54,780 nucleotides of DNA, from the NCBI GenBank assembly GCA_001662655.1, contig KV460255.1; one strand, written 5' to 3'. The notes beneath the pieces are model-generated. The model made no database searches. It saw only the letters and a program-made list of their open reading frames with translations, and had not been told where the DNA came from. The DNA is from Pseudogymnoascus verrucosus. Its lineage: Eukaryota. The number at the start of each line of letters is the position of its first letter. Position 1 is the first letter of the stretch. This document shows positions 13,430 to 54,780 of this stretch, one piece after another. A program made the translations under genes and the position numbers.

Positions 13430-13783
13430 TTAGACATATGGAGCCATAAGCATGTAAGAACACTCCCTAAATCGAGTCCCGATTCCAAATACGTATATGA
13501 CTCCAGAAGCGACTGCAGATAGAAATAATAGGTAGAGCGCTGGTATAAGACAATCCTGCAAGAACTTTTCATCGTGAACTGGCCAGTCAATTTGAATTTC
13601 ATCAAATTCCGCCTTTATTTCTGATGGTACCTGGCGAGGTGCGTCTTGCGAACTTGGCGGAGGCAGGTGGGATTGAGATGGTTGGGGTGATATTCGATCC
13701 TCTTCAAGTGATAGTTTGTCTGCGTTTTCGCTGTTATCGATGGCTTGGTAGTCTTGCTCGTGGCAACAAGGAAGAATAGCCAT
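13430..13783 (-). CDS. Small hypothetical membrane protein
   Basis: 117-aa ORF in AT-richer flanks with one hydrophobic segment (LIPALYLLFLSAVASGVIYVFGIG). Its 5' end lies within a 58-bp tandem duplication. Confidence 0.4.
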   Translation of the reverse strand: MAILPCCHEQDYQAIDNSENADKLSLEEDRISPQPSQSHLPPPSSQDAPRQVPSEIKAEFDEIQIDWPVHDEKFLQDCLIPALYLLFLSAVASGVIYVFGIGTRFRECSYMLMAPYV

Positions 13784-13847
13784 TATTGCTGTTATCGATG
13801 GCTTGGTAGTCTTGCTCGTGGCAACAAGGAAGAATAGCCATTATTGC
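13730..13847. repeat. Perfect 58-bp tandem duplication
   Basis: GCTGTTATCGATGGCTTGGTAGTCTTGCTCGTGGCAACAAGGAAGAATAGCCATTATT at 13730-13787 and 13788-13845, plus 2 bp. Confidence 0.95.
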
Positions 13848-14114
13848 GGTTACGCTATTAGATGGAAGTAAGCCAATAAATTTATATTTAAATTGGAAGA
13901 AAGAACTGTGTGAGCAACTAAAATAGCTAGACTACGAGTACTGTGATGATACTCACCAGATATGATACGACTGTTTCTTGTTGCGCCACACCACTCCAGC
14001 CACGTTGTCGATCTTAACCGTGCGGGTGAACCCTGAAGTCAAACCTTAAAAAGTGGACCATATGTTAACAGGCACCTGTGCCACACCCCTCCACACCACT
14101 GCGACGATGGATGA

Positions 14115-19423: not shown

Positions 19424-20816
19424 CTATTCTACCTCCTCGTTATCTTGGACGTTGAAGTGCCAAGCCAGAAATGGTGATATTCTGCGCACTAAGTCAAGGA
19501 GAGGTTCGTCAGGCTGTCTTTTATTAAAGCACCCAAGAATCATCCCCGCTGAGAAATCACACGCTGATATTGACGTTAACGTTTGGTAGGTACGATTGTC
19601 CGTATCACCAATAAATAAACTTCCAATTAAGGCACGGCCGTGGACGTCCTGCGAATAATCCTTACTGCTCGCATTCCATATTTCCTGCGACGACGGGACT
19701 CGGACGTTTAGCATCGCAGGATCGAAATAGTCAAGGAGACGGAACTTTGGTAGGTGAGTAATGAGGACGGCATTAAGATGAACCGTTGCTTTAAATAGAA
19801 TAACAGCGAGTCTAGACATGTTAGAATGGGAACTTGCCAATACGCCTGTAGTAGCGCACCTTTGATACTGTTCTCGCACGAGCGGGTTGAGGGGGTTCTC
19901 GGCATTAATTCTCTGCTGATCGAATACTCCAGCATGGCTAAACAATCGAAAGAGACGTTTGCTGTATACCGTGAGCCGCAAGAGGCGCTTATTATCTATT
20001 ACATTTGATGGAATGCCACTTGCTGCCCTATGAGTCAATAAGATTGTTGAAATCATGATGGCTTGAAAGAAGGGAAGAAACTCGGGCCGAGGTGCATTAA
20101 AGATATCACTCTGTTGTTCGAGCAGTGACTGTGTCATATAGATCAGTTCCAAGGTCTATAATAGGCCGGGGATATTGGAGGGGGTTGTATTACGGAATTC
20201 CCGCACTGAATCTCAACTATCTTGTCATGATGGAATTCTGCTTGTTGCCTTGCCTTGGCCGTACCTGTCATCCACAAACCTGCAACTAAGACAGCCTGTA
20301 CTAATTGTTCAGGTTGAGCCTCGCTCTGAAAGGTTCTTTCATGCAAAATGGGCCAATGCAGATGTAACGTGGAAAAATAAAGCTGCTCAAGTAACTTTCT
20401 GTTAGATGCTTGGGCGAATTCTGCTCCAAGACTAATCATCATGCTGTCACTTAACCGCCGAAGAGCCAATTCTCTGCGCTCATGGTCAGACTTCGTCTGT
20501 ACATTATTTTCGATATTTTGCTTGGGTTCTGGTGTGAGAAAGCTTGCCGGGCTCGATAGTTCGAGGTTTACTGGGGATTTGCTGTGGCTCAGGGCGATAT
20601 GGCGATTGAGCAAGTCACTATGGAAATATGTTGGCACGTCTTCGGCGGAATACTTGGGGATTTTGCTCGAAATTTTACATCTTACCTGCGGTTGAAAGTG
20701 GAAGGGCAAACTTGACAAGCAAACGATCGCAGGTTGGTATGGGCCTTCTGATGGCGCAAGAGGTGTTCCCTTCGTTTGTAAGAGCGGCTGCACTCAGGGT
20801 GGTGACATTGGAACAT
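19424..20816 (-). CDS. Two-finger C2H2 transcription factor with fungal-specific TF (middle homology) domain
   Basis: Exon 1 20816-20686 'MFQCHHPECSRSYKRREHLLRHQKAHTNLRSFACQVCPSTFNR'; intron 20618-20685; exon 2 'SDLLNRHIALSH...LYFSTLHLHWPILHERTF'. Probable further introns 20156-20193 (38 nt, weak) and 19812-19859. Confidence 0.85.
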
Positions 20817-20912
20817 TATGGTAATATGACCTTATAGGCCGTTCGACGGAGCCGCTCTCAGGCCTACTCTGAAGGATTGCTTCTCAATTCAGTGAATAAT
20901 ACGAGTTACACC

Positions 20913-21114
20913 ATGTAGGCGGCCTTCTTTATCATGTAGGATGTGGGATGTGGGATGTGGGATGTGGGATGAAGGATCGAGCGATGTGGGCGGTTGAAGT
21001 AGGGGACGACGCGGGATAAGCGATATGGGATGAGCTATGTGGGCGGGTGGGGTTTAATGCAGCATGTGGGCTGAACGATGTGGGATGAGCCGGCCCGCGG
21101 TGAGCGATGTGGGC
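20913..21114 (+). promoter_or_regulatory. ATGTGGG motif array in the divergent TF/NmrA promoter
   Basis: Exact ATGTGGG at 20941, 20948, 20955, 20962 (tandem), 20984, 21037, 21064, 21078, 21107. Variants at 20913, 20934, 21009, 21023. All on one strand. Confidence 0.6.
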
Positions 21115-21365
21115 TGTCTAAGATGACAAAATACTCGAGTGGGTTTGATTTCGTTGCAACGATGCAGAAGGATTGTGTACTGATTATTGATTAGCATCTA
21201 GTTAGTTCTTCATTTATCGGCTCAAAATGGGTTTAAATAAGAGGAAGCGTGCCTGCTTTCTTAAAAAGGATCATCAGCATCAGCATCATCAAGCTTCAAG
21301 TGATTCCAACGACTCAAGTTATAAAATCAACACCCTGAGACTTTTACTCTCAAACACCAAACAAA

Positions 21366-22316
21366 ATGTCTAATATTCTTGCAATCCTCGGCGCTACTGG
21401 CCAGCAAGGCGGTTCCGTCCTCAACTTCGTCCTGAACGACCCAGAGCTCTCCCAAATATACAAGATCCGCGCAATCACCCGCGATGTCAACTCAGAGAAG
21501 GCCACAAAGCTCAAGGGGAAAGTCGAAGTCGTCCAGGGTGATATAAATGACCCGGCCTCCCTCAAGGCAGCCTTAGTCGGCGTGCACACCGTTTTCTCTG
21601 TGACAACACCATCTTTCGGCCCCAACGCCTTAGAGGACGAATATAACGTCGGCAAGTCCATCGCCGACGTCGCCGTTGAGAACGGTGCTCAATACATCAT
21701 CTTCAGCACTCTGACAGCAATCAAAGACATTTCTGGTGGCAAGTACGCCAATGTCTTTCCATTCGACGCCAAGGCCAAAATCGAGGAGTATATTCGCGGC
21801 CTCTCCATCAAGAGCGCCTTCTTCGCGGGTGCATCATTCATGGAGAATTTCCAGTCTCAATTCTTCTTAGCTCCAAAACAGGCTGCGGACGGCACCTGGG
21901 TTTTAGCCCGCCACGTCTCCCCTCAGAGCAAGTTCCCCTTGATCGACGCTGTTGGCGATACTGGGAAATTCGTCGGCGCCATCCTCGCTGAGCCGGACAA
22001 GTACGAGGGGAAGACGTTCTGTGGTGCTGCTGGAATATACACCATGGAGCAAGTAGCCGCTATACTCTCAAAAAATACGGGAAAGACGATCGTTTATAAG
22101 CAGGTCTCGGTTAAGGAGTTTAAGGAGGGCATAGTGGGCTTTGGGTTGCCTCGTGTGCTGGCTGATATCTTCGTTGATGGGTTCAGCTTCAACGAAGAAT
22201 TCGGATACTTTGGCCCAAATCAAGAGGAGTCAATTGCCTGGTCTGTTCAAAACGCCCGAGGCCGACCGTCGACGTTTGAGGAGTACCTGGAGGTGCATCC
22301 TTTCCGACTTGAATAG
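21366..22316 (+). CDS. NmrA-like NAD(P)-binding Rossmann protein (HSCARG-like)
   Basis: 'ILAILGATGQQGGSV', 'IRAITRD', 'FDAKAKIEEYIR', 'FMENF', 'DTGKFV'. 316 aa, intronless. Confidence 0.93.
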   Translation: MSNILAILGATGQQGGSVLNFVLNDPELSQIYKIRAITRDVNSEKATKLKGKVEVVQGDINDPASLKAALVGVHTVFSVTTPSFGPNALEDEYNVGKSIADVAVENGAQYIIFSTLTAIKDISGGKYANVFPFDAKAKIEEYIRGLSIKSAFFAGASFMENFQSQFFLAPKQAADGTWVLARHVSPQSKFPLIDAVGDTGKFVGAILAEPDKYEGKTFCGAAGIYTMEQVAAILSKNTGKTIVYKQVSVKEFKEGIVGFGLPRVLADIFVDGFSFNEEFGYFGPNQEESIAWSVQNARGRPSTFEEYLEVHPFRLE

Positions 22317-22863: not shown

Positions 22864-24492
22864 CTACACAAAATTCGACGCATCAAAAGTGCGCGGGCCT
22901 TTCGTATAGATCCCCAACAACTCCTCCTGGAAGTCATCGAGTTCCACTATCGTGAACTGCCCCGCCCACTTCTTTGCAAATGCCTTGTCGCGGTAGGCGT
23001 AGCTTATACTACGCTTCCAAGCGACGAGCTCAACTTTCCATCCCCGCTCAAGAGCCCTTTCGACGTTCCTGAGAAAGCCAGAGGAGTACTCCGCCACGGC
23101 GGCGTCTCCAGTGGCGACGACCATTGTGGAAGGATAATCCGTATCAACCATGCTTTCCAGCATCTTCATATGGAGAATCTCGTCCACGCCTTGCTCAGTA
23201 ACCGTTTTAAAGGCGTTGAGAGGAGCCTCGCCGCCGCTACCGGAAGACGTGTTGTTTCCATTGGCTCTTCCTAGCCGCTTATATTTTTCAATATCCGACT
23301 CTTTCGCCTCCTTGAACTTCTCCACGCGCTCGAGCGCTGAAACTTCATAGCCGCACTGGGCTGCTTCGTACATGTAATCCAATCGCACGTTATCGCGACT
23401 GGACCCCACCAGAACCCGTTTCGCGACACCTCGACCACGTTCCATGATCAAGGCCAGCGAATGGTATGCCAGTGGTGGTAATTTCGTAAATTCATTTTTG
23501 TCCATTCCCCGTGCTCTTTTGAGCGCCTCTGCAAATCCGATGGCGATGTTGGAGCTATCAACGAACACATGGATGCCATCTGGACGTTCATTGCCGCCAA
23601 CATGGCCCATAGCGCGGATAAGGTCGCCCTCAATCGTACTCGATGTTGGCCCGAATCTTAGCATGAGCTTTTCAGCAATTCTAAGCTTCTTCGTATCATG
23701 AGACGCATAAAGCAGAGGTCTTATCACTTTGGGATCCAGCAGAATACGCGGAGTATCTGCAGGTAAGCTCTGGCGACGGCCGACTGACTTATGCGTGCTG
23801 ATTGCAGCAGCTCGTGCTGTTGAAAAATGTGTTGGTGTCGCATGGACGTCAACTATAGCTGTGGACTTCTTGGCTTTGTTAAGTATGCGCTCACTTCTCC
23901 GTACCGGCGTGGTAGGCAGGGCATCCGGCACCCATCCGAAACTTGGGAGTGGAACGGTCGAGTCCAATCTTCGGGCGGCCTTAAGCTGACGATATAGTTC
24001 GGTCGTTGACACGGAATTGTTTGGCTGCTGTTTTTCTCCGTTGGGCAGGGTGACTTTCTTCAGTTTATTTTGTGCATTATTATTCAGTCCCAGTTTTGTT
24101 TTGTAATTTTGAATATCTTCATTCGCTCCGACCGCCCTAGGCATCATGCACAAGTCAAAATATCTCGGTTCTTCGTCCGGCGGTGTGGAGGCCGCGGTAG
24201 AGTATGAGCCTACATCTTCAGACGTTTCGTCTGAAGATGATGGATGGTTTGCTTTGATGGGTATATCGATAGCCTCGGTGCCTAGGTGCTTGAAAATGGC
24301 ATCGAAATTCCCTAGACTTGGAGTGCTTCCGGTGGTGGCAACGTCTTGGTTTCTACCAGGTATGTTTGTCGAGGAGGCATTGTTCAGCCGCGGCGATGAG
24401 CCAGTGTTGTCGGACTTCACGCCCTGCAGAAGCAGTTCGATACAGGGACCGAAGTCCCAAGAAGCTATGGGCACTCCAGGATGAGGAGACAT
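22864..24492 (-). CDS. NYN (PIN-like) domain protein, putative ribonuclease
   Basis: Low-complexity N-terminal half. C-terminal 'IHVFVDSSNI', 'EQGVDEILH', 'MVVATGD', 'GWKVELVAW' match NYN-domain motifs. Confidence 0.8.
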   Translation of the reverse strand: MSPHPGVPIASWDFGPCIELLLQGVKSDNTGSSPRLNNASSTNIPGRNQDVATTGSTPSLGNFDAIFKHLGTEAIDIPIKANHPSSSDETSEDVGSYSTAASTPPDEEPRYFDLCMMPRAVGANEDIQNYKTKLGLNNNAQNKLKKVTLPNGEKQQPNNSVSTTELYRQLKAARRLDSTVPLPSFGWVPDALPTTPVRRSERILNKAKKSTAIVDVHATPTHFSTARAAAISTHKSVGRRQSLPADTPRILLDPKVIRPLLYASHDTKKLRIAEKLMLRFGPTSSTIEGDLIRAMGHVGGNERPDGIHVFVDSSNIAIGFAEALKRARGMDKNEFTKLPPLAYHSLALIMERGRGVAKRVLVGSSRDNVRLDYMYEAAQCGYEVSALERVEKFKEAKESDIEKYKRLGRANGNNTSSGSGGEAPLNAFKTVTEQGVDEILHMKMLESMVDTDYPSTMVVATGDAAVAEYSSGFLRNVERALERGWKVELVAWKRSISYAYRDKAFAKKWAGQFTIVELDDFQEELLGIYTKGPRTFDASNFV

Positions 24493-24801
24493 AAGAGGTC
24501 TTGTTTGTTTCTATGGCGAGAAGTGTCGGTTTGCGGCGGTGAGACTTGCATCCAGTAAGTATTTGGTGGCGGGTGATAGAAGGTTCCGATAGAAGGTTCC
24601 GGCAAGCATACCTTTGTTGTAGTGACCGACGGTCGGTTTCTGACATTTTACAAGTAGATTTCAGGAGATGTATATGTTGAAATGTGAAGAATGTAATGTT
24701 GGTTAACGCTGGAGAGCTGCGGTTGTCGACATGCGGGGGTTATAAGGCTCCACTGCCGCTCGCTGACTCCGCCGATTTGGGGATTGTGACTCCGAAGTTC
24801 T

Positions 24802-47646: not shown

Positions 47647-49263
47647 ATGCATCCGCCTGTAGAGGCACAGTCCCTCTCATCTCTCCTCCAAATTGCCTCC
47701 AACCCGCCCCGCTACCCCCGAAACCCCTCAGAGCCAAAACGTGACCCTCTGGTCTTATACATAGCACGTGTCCCTGGCAGTCAAGGTACCCCCCTCAGTC
47801 TTCTTCCATAAAACCCTACTAACACTCTCGCAGATGTCATTCTCACGCCCCTCAAGCCAGACCTGAAGAACCTCAAGGAGCTCGACGTCGCTTCCTGCCT
47901 GTATTACCTTCACCGCAACGTCCCCTCTGACGCGGCCCTGGTTGTCGACCTCTCCACTCACCCCGTGCACCCCCCAACGCCGCATATCGCGCGGAAACCC
48001 CTTCCAAAGTCTTCCGCACCCATCACCACCGATCTTGCAGCACCACCCCCACCCGATGCCGCCATCCCAACTGTCAGTCCCCTCGACCCGCCACATCCCT
48101 CCTCGCCCCCTCCCAAGCCCCCGCGCCGCCCACTAAACGACCCGATATCCGCCCTCCCTCTCAAGCCCCCACCATTAGCACCACCCCGCCGCCCTCTTGG
48201 ACCGCGCCCACGCTCGCTGGCTACTCCAGCCGCCGTCCCAGCCACGGAGGGACAGGAAAACGCGCCTCTCCTCCCACCGCGGCCATACCCAGAAGCAACC
48301 ACGCCAACAGCAGCAGCTACCTCCCAAGCTCGCGGCCGGGCAGATGCCCTCTTCCCCACCAACCCAACTTCACCCAACAACCACTCACCCACGCACCTCA
48401 AGGCAACAGAGCCCTACACCATAACCCTCATCCGGCGCGACCCCCCCACAGGTGCACAATGGACCATCGGCTCCCTCCTTATCTCCCCCCGCTCCACCCC
48501 CTCAGTGGTAGTCACCCTCACCACACCCGGGTACACCACTTTCAGCAGCCCTCCCGGGGACTTCAAACGGGAGATCAACACCGATAAACCCGTGACAGCT
48601 GTGCGACGCCGCGGGCACCGGCGAGGCCACTCTGCATTCTCCACCCACTCCTCCGATCAGGCCCCAATACCGCAACCCAAAGATGCACAAGCCTACACTT
48701 TTCCCTCCCCATGGTCAACACCCTGCACTTTCGCTACTGCGCCGTCGGGTCGCGCGCTGAGGTGCACACACGAGCTCCCCGCTGTAGACGCGGAGGGCGA
48801 GCCGACAGTGGAGGGTGTGGTTGTGAGTGAACTGCGGTATAACACCCCTACTACCTCTCTATTTGGGCTTGCTCGGCCGAAACACAGACACGGCGACAGG
48901 CATGGGGAAAGGGGGAGCAGGATACCCGGAACGCTACCAGGGGCGTTGCCATTGCCACGACCGCAGTCACGTGCCAGGCCGAAGAGTGCACCTTCATCAC
49001 CACTGCACGCGCCGTCGAATTATCTAGCTCACGAGAGCTCTTGGACGGGTGATGAGGATGGCGGGGATAGGGATAGCGGAGCGGATTTGTCGTTGGGAAG
49101 AGAGAAAGCGGGGGGTGGGAGGGCGGGGGGGAGAGCGAAGTTGGGGAAGTTGATTGTGTTTGGGGATGGGATTAAGATGTTGGATCTTTTGGTGGCGGGG
49201 AATATGGGGGTTTGGTATGAGGGGTGGGGGGATAAGGGGAGTGGTGAGGGGGAGGGGAATTGA
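47647..49263 (+). CDS. Conserved-looking Pro-rich fungal hypothetical protein
   Basis: Exons 47647-47785 and 47834-49263. 'PLVLYIARVPGSQ|DVILTPLKP', 'ITLIRRDP..G.QW.IG', 'DLSLGREKAGGG..G..AKLGKLIV...G.KMLDLLVA.NMGVW'. Confidence 0.8.
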
Positions 49264-51930
49264 GTATGGTGGGTGGTATGGGTGAGCGAGGTGGCTATTT
49301 GTATGCATATCAGCGAGAAATACAGAGGCATTCCCAGCGTTCCGTGTCGTCTTTATAAAAGAGACGTTTCAAACATTATTACTCCACGCATCGAACCACA
49401 TTCTGACATCCTACTTCTTCTAGTCATGGAATGTTCTAAATACAAGCAGCTTGCTGGGCTGGCTAATACGTGACTGTTGTGCTGGCCTAGAGGGGAACTG
49501 TACGCCTTCTCACCACCGTTATATCCCTCGTTACCACCAGCCCCTGTAGTCATTCCATCTTTGCTGTCGCTGCGCTGTTGTCACCGTACGGGCTGAAAAG
49601 CATCACCAAGGAGAAGCCGTATAGTTAAATTCACGTACTGTCTGCAGATCGGAATCTCGTCGAGATCTAGTTATATCAGGCAGTATCTCATGGTAAAGCG
49701 GTCGAAACATCTCAACATCGCGTCGCCCCTCATCGATATGGGCTCCTATACTAGCAAGCAGATAAACAGATACTAGAAACCCTCGCGCATAGCTGCTACT
49801 CACAGCTCCACTCACGAGACAGCGACACAGGCTCTTACGCTCAATTGTATTGTGTTGTGGAATTTGTTTCTCATAAACGCTCTGGATACGTTGGGGGATT
49901 TATAGTAGGTGAGTGGGCACATGGGAGGTACTGCTACGATGCGGGAGTAGGAAGGGGGTTTTGGTGTCGTAAGGGACGATGGGGGGGATCGGGTGGTTTC
50001 TTCACTGTATCGATGAGTTCGTCCAATGATTGCTCAAAAGCTACACTATACCCGAGGAGTCGAGCATCGGACGTTTCCTCCTTTTGATAGTGCGTGGTTG
50101 ATAGGAAAGGTCGAAGATGGCGGCAATAAAGGCTGCTGAATGAGCTATGAGCCACTTTGTCCCAAGGTGAAAGGGGTAGTTGGGATGATAGAGGTGTGCA
50201 TATAGATCAAGAACTACAGAGATACCCTGCCGTCTCTTTTACGCTCATCCAAAAGGCTTAAATACCATCTATTCCACACATCACACCAGCAAGCATCCAC
50301 CAGGCAAGCTGTCCGGCCTATTGATGACAACAATGCGAAGAAGCCGTGCTCATACCGTGTACAGCAATGCCTAGAAGGGAAGATGGCAATTCGGGACCGT
50401 GGAAATCTCCAACCCAGTTACGAGAGCTGCTGTCACCGTTGCTTGTCACCGCTAGACTGCTGTCACCGACGCCTTGGTGTCACCACCCTTCTCCCATCGA
50501 CTAGCTGGGAACAGAGACCACAACTCATCACGCACAACTACTGCTCGCACCACCTCCTCTTTTGGCGAGAGACAGAGCAGCGGAAATCACTTGGATAGTA
50601 ACATTCTCCTCTTTGTGGTTTATGTCCCGTTTACACGCTGAAAGGAGGTGTTTATATACCCACCGGCGAGCTAAGTGATACCCTTTCCCCCTTTCCACTT
50701 CCCACCGGACACGTGGAGGGGATATCAGATCATATATATCACACCGCGCCCCTTCTAACCTACCCCCGCACTTCTCATCAACTATCAATCCTCTATATCC
50801 CACCCCACCTTCCTCTCATCACCCCCGCCAGCTTGCCTTCCCAGAAAGATAGTTTGATCAACCTCCGTCCAATCCAACCAAATAAGTCAGCTATAGAAAA
50901 ATGCAGCACTAGGTATGTTTCATGCCAACGACAGGGTCATAATATCCTGCTCCCCGAGAATGTTCTCTCCTAATATCTCTATCTCGAACTTAGAAATCTC
51001 AGACTGAGGCTCTATTACCGTCTAGGAGAGGCCATGGACGCGAGAATCACACGTCTGATCCTTAAAGACGACGAAACATATTCACAAGCTGACGAGACAA
51101 AACATTTGCATTGGAACAGGAGGCGGATGCCGCCGCGAACGAGCTGAAGACGTTAAGGGGGAAATTTGACGCCACTGACTTGTTTTGGAACCACGCCAAC
51201 GCGCAGAGGCTTGGTGTGTGATTGAGAGTGATGGTGGCGCTGTCACCACCGTTACCCTCTCACCGTCCCTGAAATCTCGTCATCGCCTTGCTCCTATCAC
51301 CACCACCGCCGCCTACCGCACCGTCGCTCTTGCCGCTGTAACTATTGTCACGCATTCGGGTAGAGGCCGTTGCGCTCTGGGGAGATGACGATCGTATTTT
51401 CTATCTGCTGCCGGAGCTTAGGCCATAATGATGCCAGCTCCCCAATCTCGTTTTTGATAACTAAGCAAATATCACACACTATGAACACCCCATCCTCAGC
51501 TAGCCATCCATACTCCCTCCACCCCCATCAGCAACTACTCGCATCCCACCACCCCAGACAGCGCAATACACACCAATGAAAGGACGTATTTTTTCACGTT
51601 TCTGTTTATATTTACTAAAGGGGTGGTTTGGGGTGTAATATATTCCACCCCCCTTTATCCCCCATCCCCTTTTCCGCCTCTCTCTTTATAGCCCGCGAGT
51701 CACTTAACGTATCTACTTCTCAGAAATGCGCGTTTCTGTATACCACAACGTCCCCATCCTGAGTGGTAATTCACAATCACCTTCACTCTCCATATAAACC
51801 CCTAGTTGATGAAGATTAAAATGCTATTAACTCGTCTCATTGACTGAAAACAAACATCGCTATTGAAGAAGTCACAATACAGCATGTCATCCCCCCCTTT
51901 CTACTTCAACCAGAACCGCATATCATCATC

Positions 51931-52711
51931 TTGAATTGCCAACCCCTCTCGTCACCGTGCTTTGCTGCTGTCAACCCCCCTTTCACCACCGGTTCTCCTC
52001 TCACCCTCCACATATCAACAACCCATCTAACCCACAACCCCTCCCACGTAGTTGCCGCAGACTCTCCCTTCAGACCGCACCACAGACACCATTACTTTTC
52101 GATCATCTCGTTTTTTTCCTGCTTGTGATTACTGACCGAGGGTTGGCAGGTGGGGTATATATATTATATTAGGCAGGGTGTAAAGGAGGTGACGAGTTGT
52201 TGTTATCAAGATACTTTAAGAACATATAGAGTAATCAGGGGGCATTAGTGTGCATCCTGCCAGCACAGCCCCGAGAGATAAACCACAATCCTCTCTCACT
52301 CTCTATATAAACCTCCCTTGTCGAGACTGTCAACCCGCCATCGGCAACTCCGAAGCAACTGGGAATCAATACAAGGGTGTCGTCGAAGAAATCTCAACGC
52401 AAGGTATCAAATACCCCATCACCCTAGCCAGCCCCTCGAATCATCTTTACTTGACTTCCCAAGCCCTCTCGTCACCGTGCTATGATGATGTCACTACCCA
52501 TTCCCACCACCGGTTCTCTATCTCACCTCTCGTGTCTACAACCCATCTGGAGATATGCAGTCCACAACCCCTTCGCACAGACAGCGCTCACACCCCCGTC
52601 TCTCCAGACAGGGTTTTAATCGAAGTTGCATCTTCGTTTATTTGTCCGTTTGTGCTTACAGAGTGGGGCGGGCGGAGAGGGGTATATACTATAGGCCGCA
52701 GGGGATAAAGG
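51931..52711 (+). repeat. Diverged ~255-bp direct repeat pair (51931-52186 and 52451-52711), part of a wider degenerate array
   Basis: Colinear shared blocks: CCCTCTCGTCACCGTGCT (51944/52464), CACCACCGGTTCTC (51984/52505), ACAACCCATCT (52018/52538), CCACAACCCCT (52032/52562), GGGGTATATA (52152/52679). Confidence 0.85.
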
Positions 52712-54780
52712 CGATGAATATCCCCAATCCGCAATAGACTTGTGAGGTTTGACTTTGCATCTCTGGATCTCATCCTCCTTGTCCCCCCCTTTTTCCTCCC
52801 CACCCTCTCCCGGATGCTATCCCAAAACCCTTTCTCGCAAACTGTATAAACACACCGTTGTCTCAAAAGTTGAGGGGATCTTGGGCTATGGGCTAACATG
52901 AGTTTTCGAGTCGTCTCACCTCGAAATATTGGTTGGCTGCTGCGTTTTTGATTTTGAAAAACGTGGGAAGGTGGTGTGGATGGTGGATTTCTGTCCGAAG
53001 GAGGATATCTCGTCGTCATGCTACGCCGCTGTCACCACCACCCCGTCACCATCACCCACCATCCCGTCTCCGCAGCACCGCCCTCACCACCAGGAGCCAT
53101 CCTCCCTGGAATCTGAACCAGTCAAACCAAGATCGCTATTTTTCTGGGCTTTGTCCTCCATCATGTTGGATGTACCTTTTTGTTTCGTCTACTGTGGGGC
53201 TTATATACTGTACGATGGAAAAGAATGAGGCGAGGAGATGAAATAACATCCCCATGGCCCCTGAAATACAACGCGGCAGAAGCGAGTGTTACTGTATCCA
53301 CCTTATCCCCTCCCCTTTTGACAGGTAAGTCTACAACCCTCTCTCCCATCCCCTATAAAAGCGGTTGACTGAAGCTATCCAGACCCCCTCCGAATCACTA
53401 CCACAAAAGCGAATTAAAACACTAGACGGGAGAATACATTCCTTCTCAGAGCGGTGCGCCGATCTTGGTTTTGGATTGTAATCAATCTTAGATTGTGAGT
53501 GCGTGCTGCTGCTGCTGTTGCTATTATCACCACTGCATCGCCATCGCCGCCGCATTTTCTTCTCACCATCCCTTCTAACCGCCTCGCCGCCCTCACTACC
53601 ACTAGCACCCCATCCATTCAACCCCTCCCCTATCCCGATATGCATACCAAGACGCCCACCACAGATCCACATACACTCTCTTCCCGCCGCATCAGAAGCA
53701 ATTTAAATATCGTATCATCTGTTAGATGGTATGCCGTGTGGTTGGTTGAGGGTTGAAGACGTTATTTATGCATGTAGCCGAGGTGAGTGATATCCCTTCC
53801 TTACCATGAGACTCAACGCAGACGGACGACCTCCTACCTCATCCTCGACTCTTGGACTATACCATGCCATAGAACCCGTCCCCCCCCGACCCCCACGCTC
53901 CCCCCAGCCCCCGCCTCCCGTCACACCTCATATAAACCCCCCCAGCACCCAGCACAACCCCCTATCAACCCATGCAACACATCGAGGTCTCGGATGAAGC
54001 TATCTGAGAGTGGATGAGTGCATCGCCGTCGGGGGTGAGCTGGGTGTGGGTTGGGCTATGTGGATGGGTAGGTTTGTCAACCCCCCTCCCCCAACTTCCC
54101 CCCCTTCCCCACCATCTCCCAAACCAACACACACAACCGGAACATCCCAAGCGCCACTTAGCAGAGGTAGGCGGTGATGGGTGCCTTATTAGCGTGGGCA
54201 TAGAGGATTGACGAAACTGTCAACTACTATATAAAGCGTCTGATATCGGATAGATAGATGCCTCTGGGATAGATAAACGCCTCTCAGATGGACCAAGAAA
54301 TAATATGCTTTATATCACATTTCTAGCTTCGACCTTCAAGATTCTACGAGGGGATTGAAGTTAGGTTTGGTTTCGATAGATATCTCGTCGTCGTGGTGTG
54401 TTGCTGTTGCTGTCACTGTCACTATCACGCTGCTGCCGCCACCACCACTCTCTCCGTCCCCGCGCTCTTGTCACTGCCATCACTACACTACTATCATCAC
54501 CTACTACATCCACTCCCCCCCCCCCCCCTCTTCGCTAGGGAAAATCCCCCACAACCAAAGACCTTCACAAGTTGAAGGAGCACAGAGTAAATGTCTTGTT
54601 TCACTCCGCAGAGTAGAAGGCGGGGAGGAGAATACACCTGCCCCAGGCGAAGGAACAGAGATCCGCGCGGGAGGATTTATGCTGTCGTTGCTGCTGTTCA
54701 CACCACCGCACTGTGGCCGCCGCTGCATCATCCTGTCACCGCCCACTCCCTCCCGCTGCCGTTTCCCCCCCACCACCACG

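Follow-up and report, generated by a model that had tools for sequence, protein, structure and literature searches.

The Divergent Gene Pair and Its Intergenic Region

A stretch of 54,780 nucleotides from Pseudogymnoascus verrucosus (contig KV460255.1 of assembly GCA_001662655.1; hereafter the window) contains, between positions 19,424 and 22,316, a divergent pair of genes: a C2H2/Fungal_trans regulator gene on the minus strand, coding for 403 residues from an ATG at 20816, and an NmrA-family gene on the plus strand, coding for 316 residues from an ATG at 21366. The two genes share an intergenic region of 549 base pairs (bp; 20817–21365, without a strand of its own), and 204 bp of it, at 20913–21116, form a degenerate heptanucleotide minisatellite field of about 30 ATGTGGG units on the plus strand. 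A sequence-only reading of this DNA had called the same two genes and let them diverge from these two ATGs across about 550 bp; both starts are correct, the gap being 549 bp, and translation together with Pfam matches bears out both gene calls. A regulatory link between the array and the gene pair is plausible; the more specific reading, in which the array would serve as a cluster of weak binding sites for the regulator encoded next to it, is given a probability of about one in three.

The pairing itself is conserved. The locus tags of the regulator and the NmrA-like gene are consecutive in all three Pseudogymnoascus genomes that show both (V493_08616/08615, VE02_08846/08845 and V492_04628/04627); in four further genomes with the regulator and four further genomes with the NmrA-like gene, the partner’s tag was not among the matches listed. 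Both members of each consecutive pair also agree in the length of their longest contig, as do those of one more pair, P0002 and P0021. The sequence-only reading had proposed to compare orthologous pairs for conserved adjacency, and on this point the head-to-head arrangement agrees with it. In the literature on NmrA-like proteins, C2H2 regulators and bidirectional promoters, no such pair was found among the matches listed.

A Decayed Heptanucleotide Minisatellite

Nine exact copies of ATGTGGG lie on the plus strand of the intergenic region. Four of them (20941, 20948, 20955 and 20962) follow one another without interruption and make up the pure tandem block (ATGTGGG)x4 at 20941–20968, delimited by the exact-copy scan and by Tandem Repeats Finder (TRF); the other five (20984, 21037, 21064, 21078 and 21107) occupy, beyond that block, the plus-strand stretch 20984–21113, which also holds the one-mismatch variant ATATGGG at 21023. 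Two more one-mismatch variants (ATGTAGG at 20913 and 20934) and one variant with two mismatches (ATGAAGG at 20969) accompany them, and the earlier count of nine exact copies and four variants, all co-oriented within 20913–21116, holds. On the intergenic minus strand (20817–21365) there is neither an ATGTGGG copy nor a one-mismatch variant. Over both strands of the window the heptamer occurs 11 times against 6.5 ± 2.5 expected, a number reached in 6 of 100 shuffles; this window-wide count is unremarkable, and the signal resides in local clustering, with nine of the 11 copies confined to 173 bp of one strand where about 0.02 would be expected (scaled shuffle mean).

The sequence-only reading had further held that the copies outside the pure block were dispersed and that the array was thus more than a microsatellite, a view that does not survive closer analysis. 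The dispersed copies keep the heptad phase, which is held in blocks (the first seven copies share phase 0, and those after them have 1, 5, 5, 4, 4 and 5), and the whole 204 bp can be aligned by wrap-around to a cyclic ATGTGGG with 144 matches, 57 mismatches and 8 insertions or deletions over 30 units (72% identity), giving a score of 142 against 14.6 ± 11.3 for shuffled sequences (maximum 46); the segment 20991–21116 scores 66 when taken alone, against 5.6 ± 8.8 (shuffle maximum 34). Autocorrelation of 20913–21116 yields z values of 6.4, 4.5 and 2.7 at lags 7, 14 and 21, respectively, with a lag-7 identity of 0.50. When the pure block is left out, the lag-7 identity is still 0.43, whether from 20969 (z 3.6) or from 20991 (z 3.3) to 21116; the remainder of the intergenic region has no lag-7 signal. 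TRF reports a minisatellite of period 7 at 20934–20990 (8.0 copies, 82% matches). The seemingly dispersed copies are parts of one decayed heptad minisatellite, not independent sites.

The field also has a 14-nucleotide higher-order pattern. ATGAGCG-like heptads alternate with ATGTGGG in places, which accounts for a 14-nucleotide TRF row and for the extended context GAGCGATGTGGGC, found exactly at 20979 and 21102 and with one, two and three mismatches at 21032, 21073 and 21018, respectively. Two families of longer units can be distinguished, D1 with 68–87% and D2 with 81–86% identity. Heptad phase and periodicity together imply that the co-orientation of the copies, their clustering and their shared GAGCG context come from the descent of a single array. 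Under uniform decay, 2.2 intact units would be expected among the 30, against the nine present. Outside the pure block there are five against about 1.9 expected (Poisson P about 0.04, our own estimate from the alignment and not a program-run value); this excess is marginal, and constraint, block duplication or conversion are its possible sources.

Twelve other small tandem-repeat rows occur in the 54.8-kb window; a 58-nucleotide unit, repeated 2.1 times with 98% identity at 13730–13852, lies in the kilobase with the lowest guanine–cytosine (GC) content of the window (0.398). The array was also considered for G-quadruplex formation as a special feature. Positions 20945–20968 fit a G3N4 pattern of the G-quadruplex type (G3N1-7 x4), and 14 G-runs lie in 20945–21113; the pattern is nonetheless one of 15 in the window (runs of at least three G, loops of 1–7 nucleotides), where block shuffles predict 2.9, and the idea was dropped. 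Ten of these 15 patterns are found in the last 7 kb (47700–54120, nine of them past 48 kb), where the GC skew is mostly strongly negative.

The Regulator

The regulator gene has four exons, at 20816–20686, 20617–20194, 20128–19860 and 19811–19427, followed by a stop codon at 19424–19426; the spliced frame is free of internal stops, all its introns are of the GT-AG type (68, 65 and 48 nucleotides), and its product of 403 residues shares 304 identical residues with an orthologue of 402 residues (P0012), the alignment containing 3 gap columns. Exon 1 (20686–20816, minus strand) carries the ATG, finger 1 with its helix RREHLLR and the first half of finger 2. Its match to the Pfam profile zf-C2H2 (E 7.8e-05, 23.4 bits) falls under the cutoff of 25.2 for a 43-residue piece scored alone. 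Like the predicted product, the orthologues P0011 and P0012 begin with MFQC. Intron 1 (20618–20685, minus strand, 68 nucleotides, GTAAGA...ATAG) separates exon 1 from exon 2 (20194–20617, minus strand), which supplies the remainder of finger 2 (helix RSDLLNR once spliced), a linker and the beginning of the Fungal_trans domain. Exon 2 is 65% identical to residues 45–183 of P0012 and matches PF04082 (Fungal_trans) with 26.3 bits against a cutoff of 23, over profile positions 2–66 of 262 only. Intron 2 (20129–20193, minus strand, 65 nucleotides, GTAATA...ACAG) is followed by exon 3 (19860–20128, minus strand), which is supported by the reading frames and by the retention of the segment in P0012, and intron 3 (19812–19859, minus strand, 48 nucleotides, GTGCGC...CTAG) by exon 4 (19424–19811, minus strand, stop codon included), whose 128 residues are all identical to those of the orthologue P0009. 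At the junction of exons 3 and 4 the orthologues carry REQYQRLAVILFK. Both finger helices named in the sequence-only reading, RREHLLR and RSDLLNR, are present in this verified spliced model.

Public models of the orthologues differ from one another: that of P0009 has its start in a different frame and continues through intron 1, that of P0011 is without 38 residues, and that of P0001 is without the fingers. The window has a stop codon at 20794–20796 where P0009 has Arg in that frame, a difference of at least one base from that record.

In terms of domain organization, the spliced regulator has the spacing of the classical C2H2 domain (C4-X4-C9-X12-H22-X3-H26 and C34-X2-C37-X12-H50-X4-H55), and P0012 scores 36.9 bits on PF00096 (cutoff 25.2). 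Membership of the Fungal_trans family comes through exon 2 of the window, P0012 reaching 21.6 bits, under the cutoff of 23; among 16 aligned family members, 11 match PF00096 and 12 match Fungal_trans. A structure prediction for the regulator reaches a mean predicted local distance difference test (pLDDT) score of 80.5 and a predicted template modelling (pTM) score of 0.73; its helical domain has no match at E≤0.001 among solved folds, the best matches being to the fingers only.

Close homologues of the regulator, where named, come from Pseudogymnoascus only (seven genomes), and weaker ones from Anthostomella pinea (44% identity) and Trichothecium roseum (30%). A HMMER search with P0012 against 1.84 billion representative sequences returned 15,361 matches at E≤0.001, mostly multi-finger proteins aligned through the fingers alone, and 37 at E≤1e-30, including about 15 proteins of similar length at 33–54% identity; full-length relatives are few. 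In a feature-based search of the Atlas, the nearest clusters were Ascomycota C2H2/Fungal_trans proteins of 640–1000 residues, with or without a Zn_clus domain. The regulator is a short form of a large C2H2/Fungal_trans superfamily. A search of bacterial and archaeal genome contigs with exon 4 found no relative.

Finger Contacts and the Predicted Site

The DNA-contacting positions were placed by an ungapped match of P0012 residues 2–52 onto residues 4–54 of the Zif268 chain (4x9j); they are R15(-1), E17(+2), H18(+3) and R21(+6) in finger 1 and R43(-1), D45(+2), L46(+3) and R49(+6) in finger 2. Across the 16 family members E17, D45 and R49 are invariant, R15, H18 and R21 are present in at least 90%, and R43 and L46 in most. 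This pattern argues for a DNA-reading surface that has been maintained, yet one that does not distinguish this regulator from its relatives. By the recognition rules of C2H2 fingers, Arg specifies G, His at +3 specifies G or A, and Leu at +3 specifies T, so that the predicted site of the two fingers is 5’-GTG-GGG-3’.

The repeat units read GTGGGA or GTGGGC and thus agree with GTGGGG at five of six bases, the last G being missed in all nine copies. When all 16,384 heptamers are considered as tandem repeats, in any register and on either strand, a match of at least 5/6 arises by chance with a frequency of 0.055 for GTGGGG and of 0.17 for the relaxed site KTGGRG. The only exact GTGGGG of the intergenic region, found by motif scan, lies at 21047–21052 on the plus strand; as a cluster of candidate sites, the region therefore offers nine units at 5/6 and one site at 6/6. 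The 549 bp hold 11 copies of the core GTGGG itself, all on one strand, a density of 20 per kb against 1.0 per kb in the window. The sequence-only reading had described the promoter as packed with motifs resembling the TF’s own predicted site; the 5/6 match to GTGGG(G) stands, and the ownership is put in doubt by the chance level of such a match, by the identical missed base in all nine copies and by the family-wide contacts. The likeness between repeat and predicted site is a hint, though a weak one that lacks specificity. Known cis-elements (SYGGRG of CreA/Mig1, the stress-element core AGGGG, the GATA pattern HGATAR, the E-box and Myb sites) were also considered; on a reading by eye, no dedicated scan being made, each seems to occur about once at most in the intergenic region, and none explains the repeat.

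The NmrA-like Protein and the Surrounding Genes

The NmrA-family gene (21366–22316, plus strand) is a single exon coding for 316 residues plus a stop codon. Its product bears the Rossmann motif GATGQQG and belongs to the NmrA family by a match of residues 3–308 to positions 3–298 of the 298 of PF05368 (E 1.5e-62). Homologues are numerous: 993 were found at E≤1e-60, of which the 120 listed cover 99–100% of the query, and identity is 63–70% in Eurotiomycetes, Dothideomycetes, Sordariomycetes, lichen-forming fungi and other Leotiomycetes (Pezizomycotina). In an alignment of 31 homologues the mean column identity is 80%, with G9, T11, G12, Q14, G15, R35, T38, R39 and K136 invariant.

The closest solved structure is that of human HSCARG/NMRAL1 (E 4e-30); monooxygenase 5f5l, CtdP (7uf8), triphenylmethane reductase, NmrA (E 2e-10 to 5e-12; 1k6i at E 2.2e-10) and YtfG are further solved relatives, and enzymes of the same family are as close as NmrA to the present protein, or closer. 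In the alignment with HSCARG, P-F-D-A-K stands opposite H-F-D-G-K of that protein, at a place that we take to be the YxxxK position of short-chain dehydrogenases, and the classical catalytic tyrosine appears to be missing there. HSCARG is an NADPH sensor according to PMC3602244. Excerpts of two other reports tie fungal NmrA-like proteins to stress, namely NmrB/AN9181 (PMC11063244) and Fv_Tan1 (PMC12028961). Between sensor and enzyme, the sequence of the present protein cannot decide. Titles and opening lines of abstracts on NmrA in Pseudogymnoascus say nothing about the present gene.

An ATG-started open frame of 48 codons (21227–21373, plus strand) is found within the NmrA-like gene’s leader, out of frame with its start codon and overlapping it; it could be an upstream open reading frame if transcription begins far enough upstream. 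A short CATCAG/ATC repeat is found at 21270–21291 on the plus strand, about 80 bp upstream of the same start codon. On the other side of the gene, and converging on it, an open frame of 548 residues (22864–24510, minus strand) has no Pfam match at E≤0.001. The genes around the pair are of housekeeping types (Rad54-like protein, mitochondrial carrier, Rpn3, MYST acetyltransferase and others), and the idea of a gene cluster was dropped: with such neighbours, the pair belongs neither to a secondary-metabolite nor to a catabolic cluster.

Binding Cluster or Bystander

Fungal regulators often control adjacent genes. In the reading that assigns the array to the adjacent regulator, for which about one chance in three was given above and which we rate highest among those that give the array a function, the array would have arisen through slippage, every intact unit would supply GTGGG, that is, five of the six bases of the predicted GTGGGG, and the units would now act as a group of weak sites. 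A two-finger regulator without an accessory DNA-binding region would be recruited there through avidity, and the NmrA-like gene, possibly the regulator gene too, would fall under its control; the NmrA-like protein would accordingly figure as the regulated product, rather than as a demonstrated partner of the regulator. The conserved adjacency of the two genes, the conserved contact residues, indicative of a maintained DNA-reading surface, the G-rich sites of ADR1, the local density of GTGGG and the excess of intact units over uniform decay count in favour of such an arrangement, and a protein that starts at finger 1, without the accessory region of the ADR1 type, fits the need for many sites.

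Several observations weigh against this assignment. The last G, which Arg -1 of finger 1 should read through a normally dependable contact, is lacking in all nine copies, and a 5/6 match is to be expected by chance at the frequencies given above (0.055 for GTGGGG, 0.17 for KTGGRG). Besides the single GTGGGG at 21047, no other KTGGRG is present between the genes, which amounts to 1.8 per kb against 1.3 per kb in the window (plus strand). The contacts are family-wide and look-alike C2H2/Fungal_trans clusters are common in Ascomycota, so that the match does not point to this regulator in particular. Given the minisatellite origin, clustering and orientation are no evidence of selection; together with the GAGCG context, they are explained by repeat descent without any need for selection. 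The conserved unit of family D2 measures 13 nucleotides, which exceeds the footprint of two fingers. Finally, conservation of the NmrA-like gene reaches much further than that of the regulator, so that elsewhere the gene is controlled without it.

Many of the same observations are what a neutral minisatellite would produce, that is, a slippage-born heptad array in the course of decay whose likeness to the finger site is a coincidence and which plays no particular part for the regulator. This account is tentative as well, and none of those considered here ranks above it. The whole field shows heptad periodicity with blocks of constant phase, along with the 14-nucleotide higher-order pattern; the twelve further tandem-repeat rows indicate that such repeats are common here; a fortuitous 5/6 match arises at the frequencies given above, and every copy has its mismatch at the same base, one that is strongly specified. 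Beyond the pure block, intact units are in only marginal excess (about 5 against 1.9), and block duplication, to judge from the identities within D1 (68–87%) and D2 (81–86%), could account for it. Neutral decay is less at ease with the nine intact units, which stand amid units differing at 3–6 of 7 positions, a bimodal distribution unlike that of uniform decay, and with the placement of the field in the middle of a promoter common to a conserved regulator–target pair. A neutral array would also leave room for the regulator, which may control its neighbour through other sites such as the GTGGGG at 21047.

The array could instead be a promoter element whose action does not involve the adjacent regulator, by binding another factor (a paralogous C2H2/Fungal_trans protein or a general factor for G-rich sites), by DNA structure or by nucleosome exclusion, an explanation that we consider unlikely, though it is worth keeping in view. 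Paralogues would be expected to read the same site through the family-wide contacts, and look-alike C2H2/Fungal_trans clusters are many in Ascomycota. In a structural variant of this explanation, (GGGATGT)3GGG could act as a G-quadruplex-type pattern on the sense strand of the NmrA-like gene, in keeping with the fit of 20945–20968 to G3N1-7 x4 and with the 14 G-runs of 20945–21113; the 15 such patterns in the window, against 2.9 expected, make that of the array nothing special. As for another factor, on the same reading by eye the units do not fit the SYGGRG of CreA/Mig1, and the other known elements considered above seem to occur about once each. ATGTGGG and CCCACAT were met in the fungal literature in primer-type or unrelated occurrences only, among the matches listed.

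The full model of the sequence-only reading appears improbable. It is that of a switch under autoregulation, with the NmrA-like protein as an NAD(P)H sensor that binds the regulator as its co-repressor, by analogy with NmrA-AreA, and with a number of sites that varies between strains. Such a switch would be in line with the conserved adjacency of the two genes, with the NADPH-sensing role that PMC3602244 gives to HSCARG, the nearest solved relative of the NmrA-like protein, with P-F-D-A-K opposite H-F-D-G-K, which leaves no classical catalytic tyrosine, and with NmrA being itself a solved family member (1k6i, E 2.2e-10). Against it, the family includes enzymes (monooxygenase 5f5l, CtdP 7uf8, triphenylmethane reductase and YtfG), the NmrA-like protein keeps 63–70% identity across fungal classes without the regulator, which points to a regulator-independent function, and AreA belongs to the GATA factors rather than to the C2H2 proteins. 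An interaction prediction for P0012 with P0029, the NmrA-like protein of the same genome, gave 0.10 against a mark of 0.34 when run without alignments or controls, a value that speaks neither for nor against binding. More improbable still is a two-gene autoregulatory redox switch in which a lineage-restricted two-finger regulator would have captured a minisatellite-born upstream element of variable length and would also bind its neighbour, a conserved HSCARG-like NADPH sensor, the gain being set by the number of intact heptads.

What is at stake differs between these accounts. If the neighbouring regulator does bind the array, this would be a clear example from nature of promoter sites generated as a cluster by repeat slippage; a small and so far unstudied group within the C2H2/Fungal_trans regulators would gain its first target and first site, and there would be a clue to what an HSCARG-like protein so very widely conserved in fungi does. 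An unbound array would be an ordinary promoter minisatellite next to an ordinary gene pair. For a related combination of C2H2 fingers with a Zn cluster, the accessible text of PMC5415576 describes the details of DNA recognition as obscure without direct experiments.

Comparison with Known Systems

Divergent pairs of a pathway-specific regulator or promoter element with its target are exemplified by alcR-alcA of Aspergillus nidulans and the GAL1-GAL10 upstream activating sequence, and the likeness lies in a regulator standing beside its target, several co-located promoter sites and possible autoregulation. By comparison, the candidate sites described here are units of a decayed minisatellite that all depart from the prediction at one base, and the regulator, with its two C2H2 fingers, is not of the Zn2Cys6 type.

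For the fingers, a counterpart is ADR1 of Saccharomyces cerevisiae (2adr), likewise a protein with two classical C2H2 fingers; among the solved relatives it reaches the highest identity (40% over 63 columns, E 3.2e-9). Its helix contacts are presumably of the same type (R/E/H/R and R/D/L/R), and we take it to be a far longer protein than the regulator described here; judging by the title of a 1991 study by Thukral, it reportedly binds an inverted repeat as two monomers. The ADR1 site is given as TTGGRG in an excerpt of PMC3897899 and as RCCCCM in one of PMC10653825, and high-affinity binding needs an accessory region N-terminal to the two fingers, according to the portion available of PMC2527678. 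The present regulator, in contrast, begins at finger 1 (MFQC), has a Fungal_trans-type domain within its 403 residues and faces direct repeats without the final G. With no N-terminal accessory region and a short body, it does not qualify as an ADR1 orthologue, the likeness being confined to the fingers.

NmrA, which acts with AreA in Aspergillus nidulans, and human HSCARG/NMRAL1 share with the NmrA-like protein the PF05368 domain, the Rossmann motif and the lack of a tyrosine at the YxxxK place. NmrA itself is only a distant match (E 2.2e-10) and AreA is a GATA factor; areA is not known to lie next to nmrA.

The array, for its part, resembles the tandem repeats of yeast promoters, described in the parts available of PMC5622345 and PMC3516485, in being a short-unit promoter array that could change its unit number; it differs from them in being mostly decayed, with only four units still in pure tandem. 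What is new here is the finding that the nearest named homologues all come from Pseudogymnoascus, the wide conservation of the NmrA-like gene against the few full-length relatives of the regulator, the conserved adjacency of the two genes, the minisatellite nature of the field, the family-wide distribution of the finger contacts and the chance level of the 5/6 match. Set against these known systems, the module is of an ordinary kind, a putative regulator–target pair with a promoter repeat.

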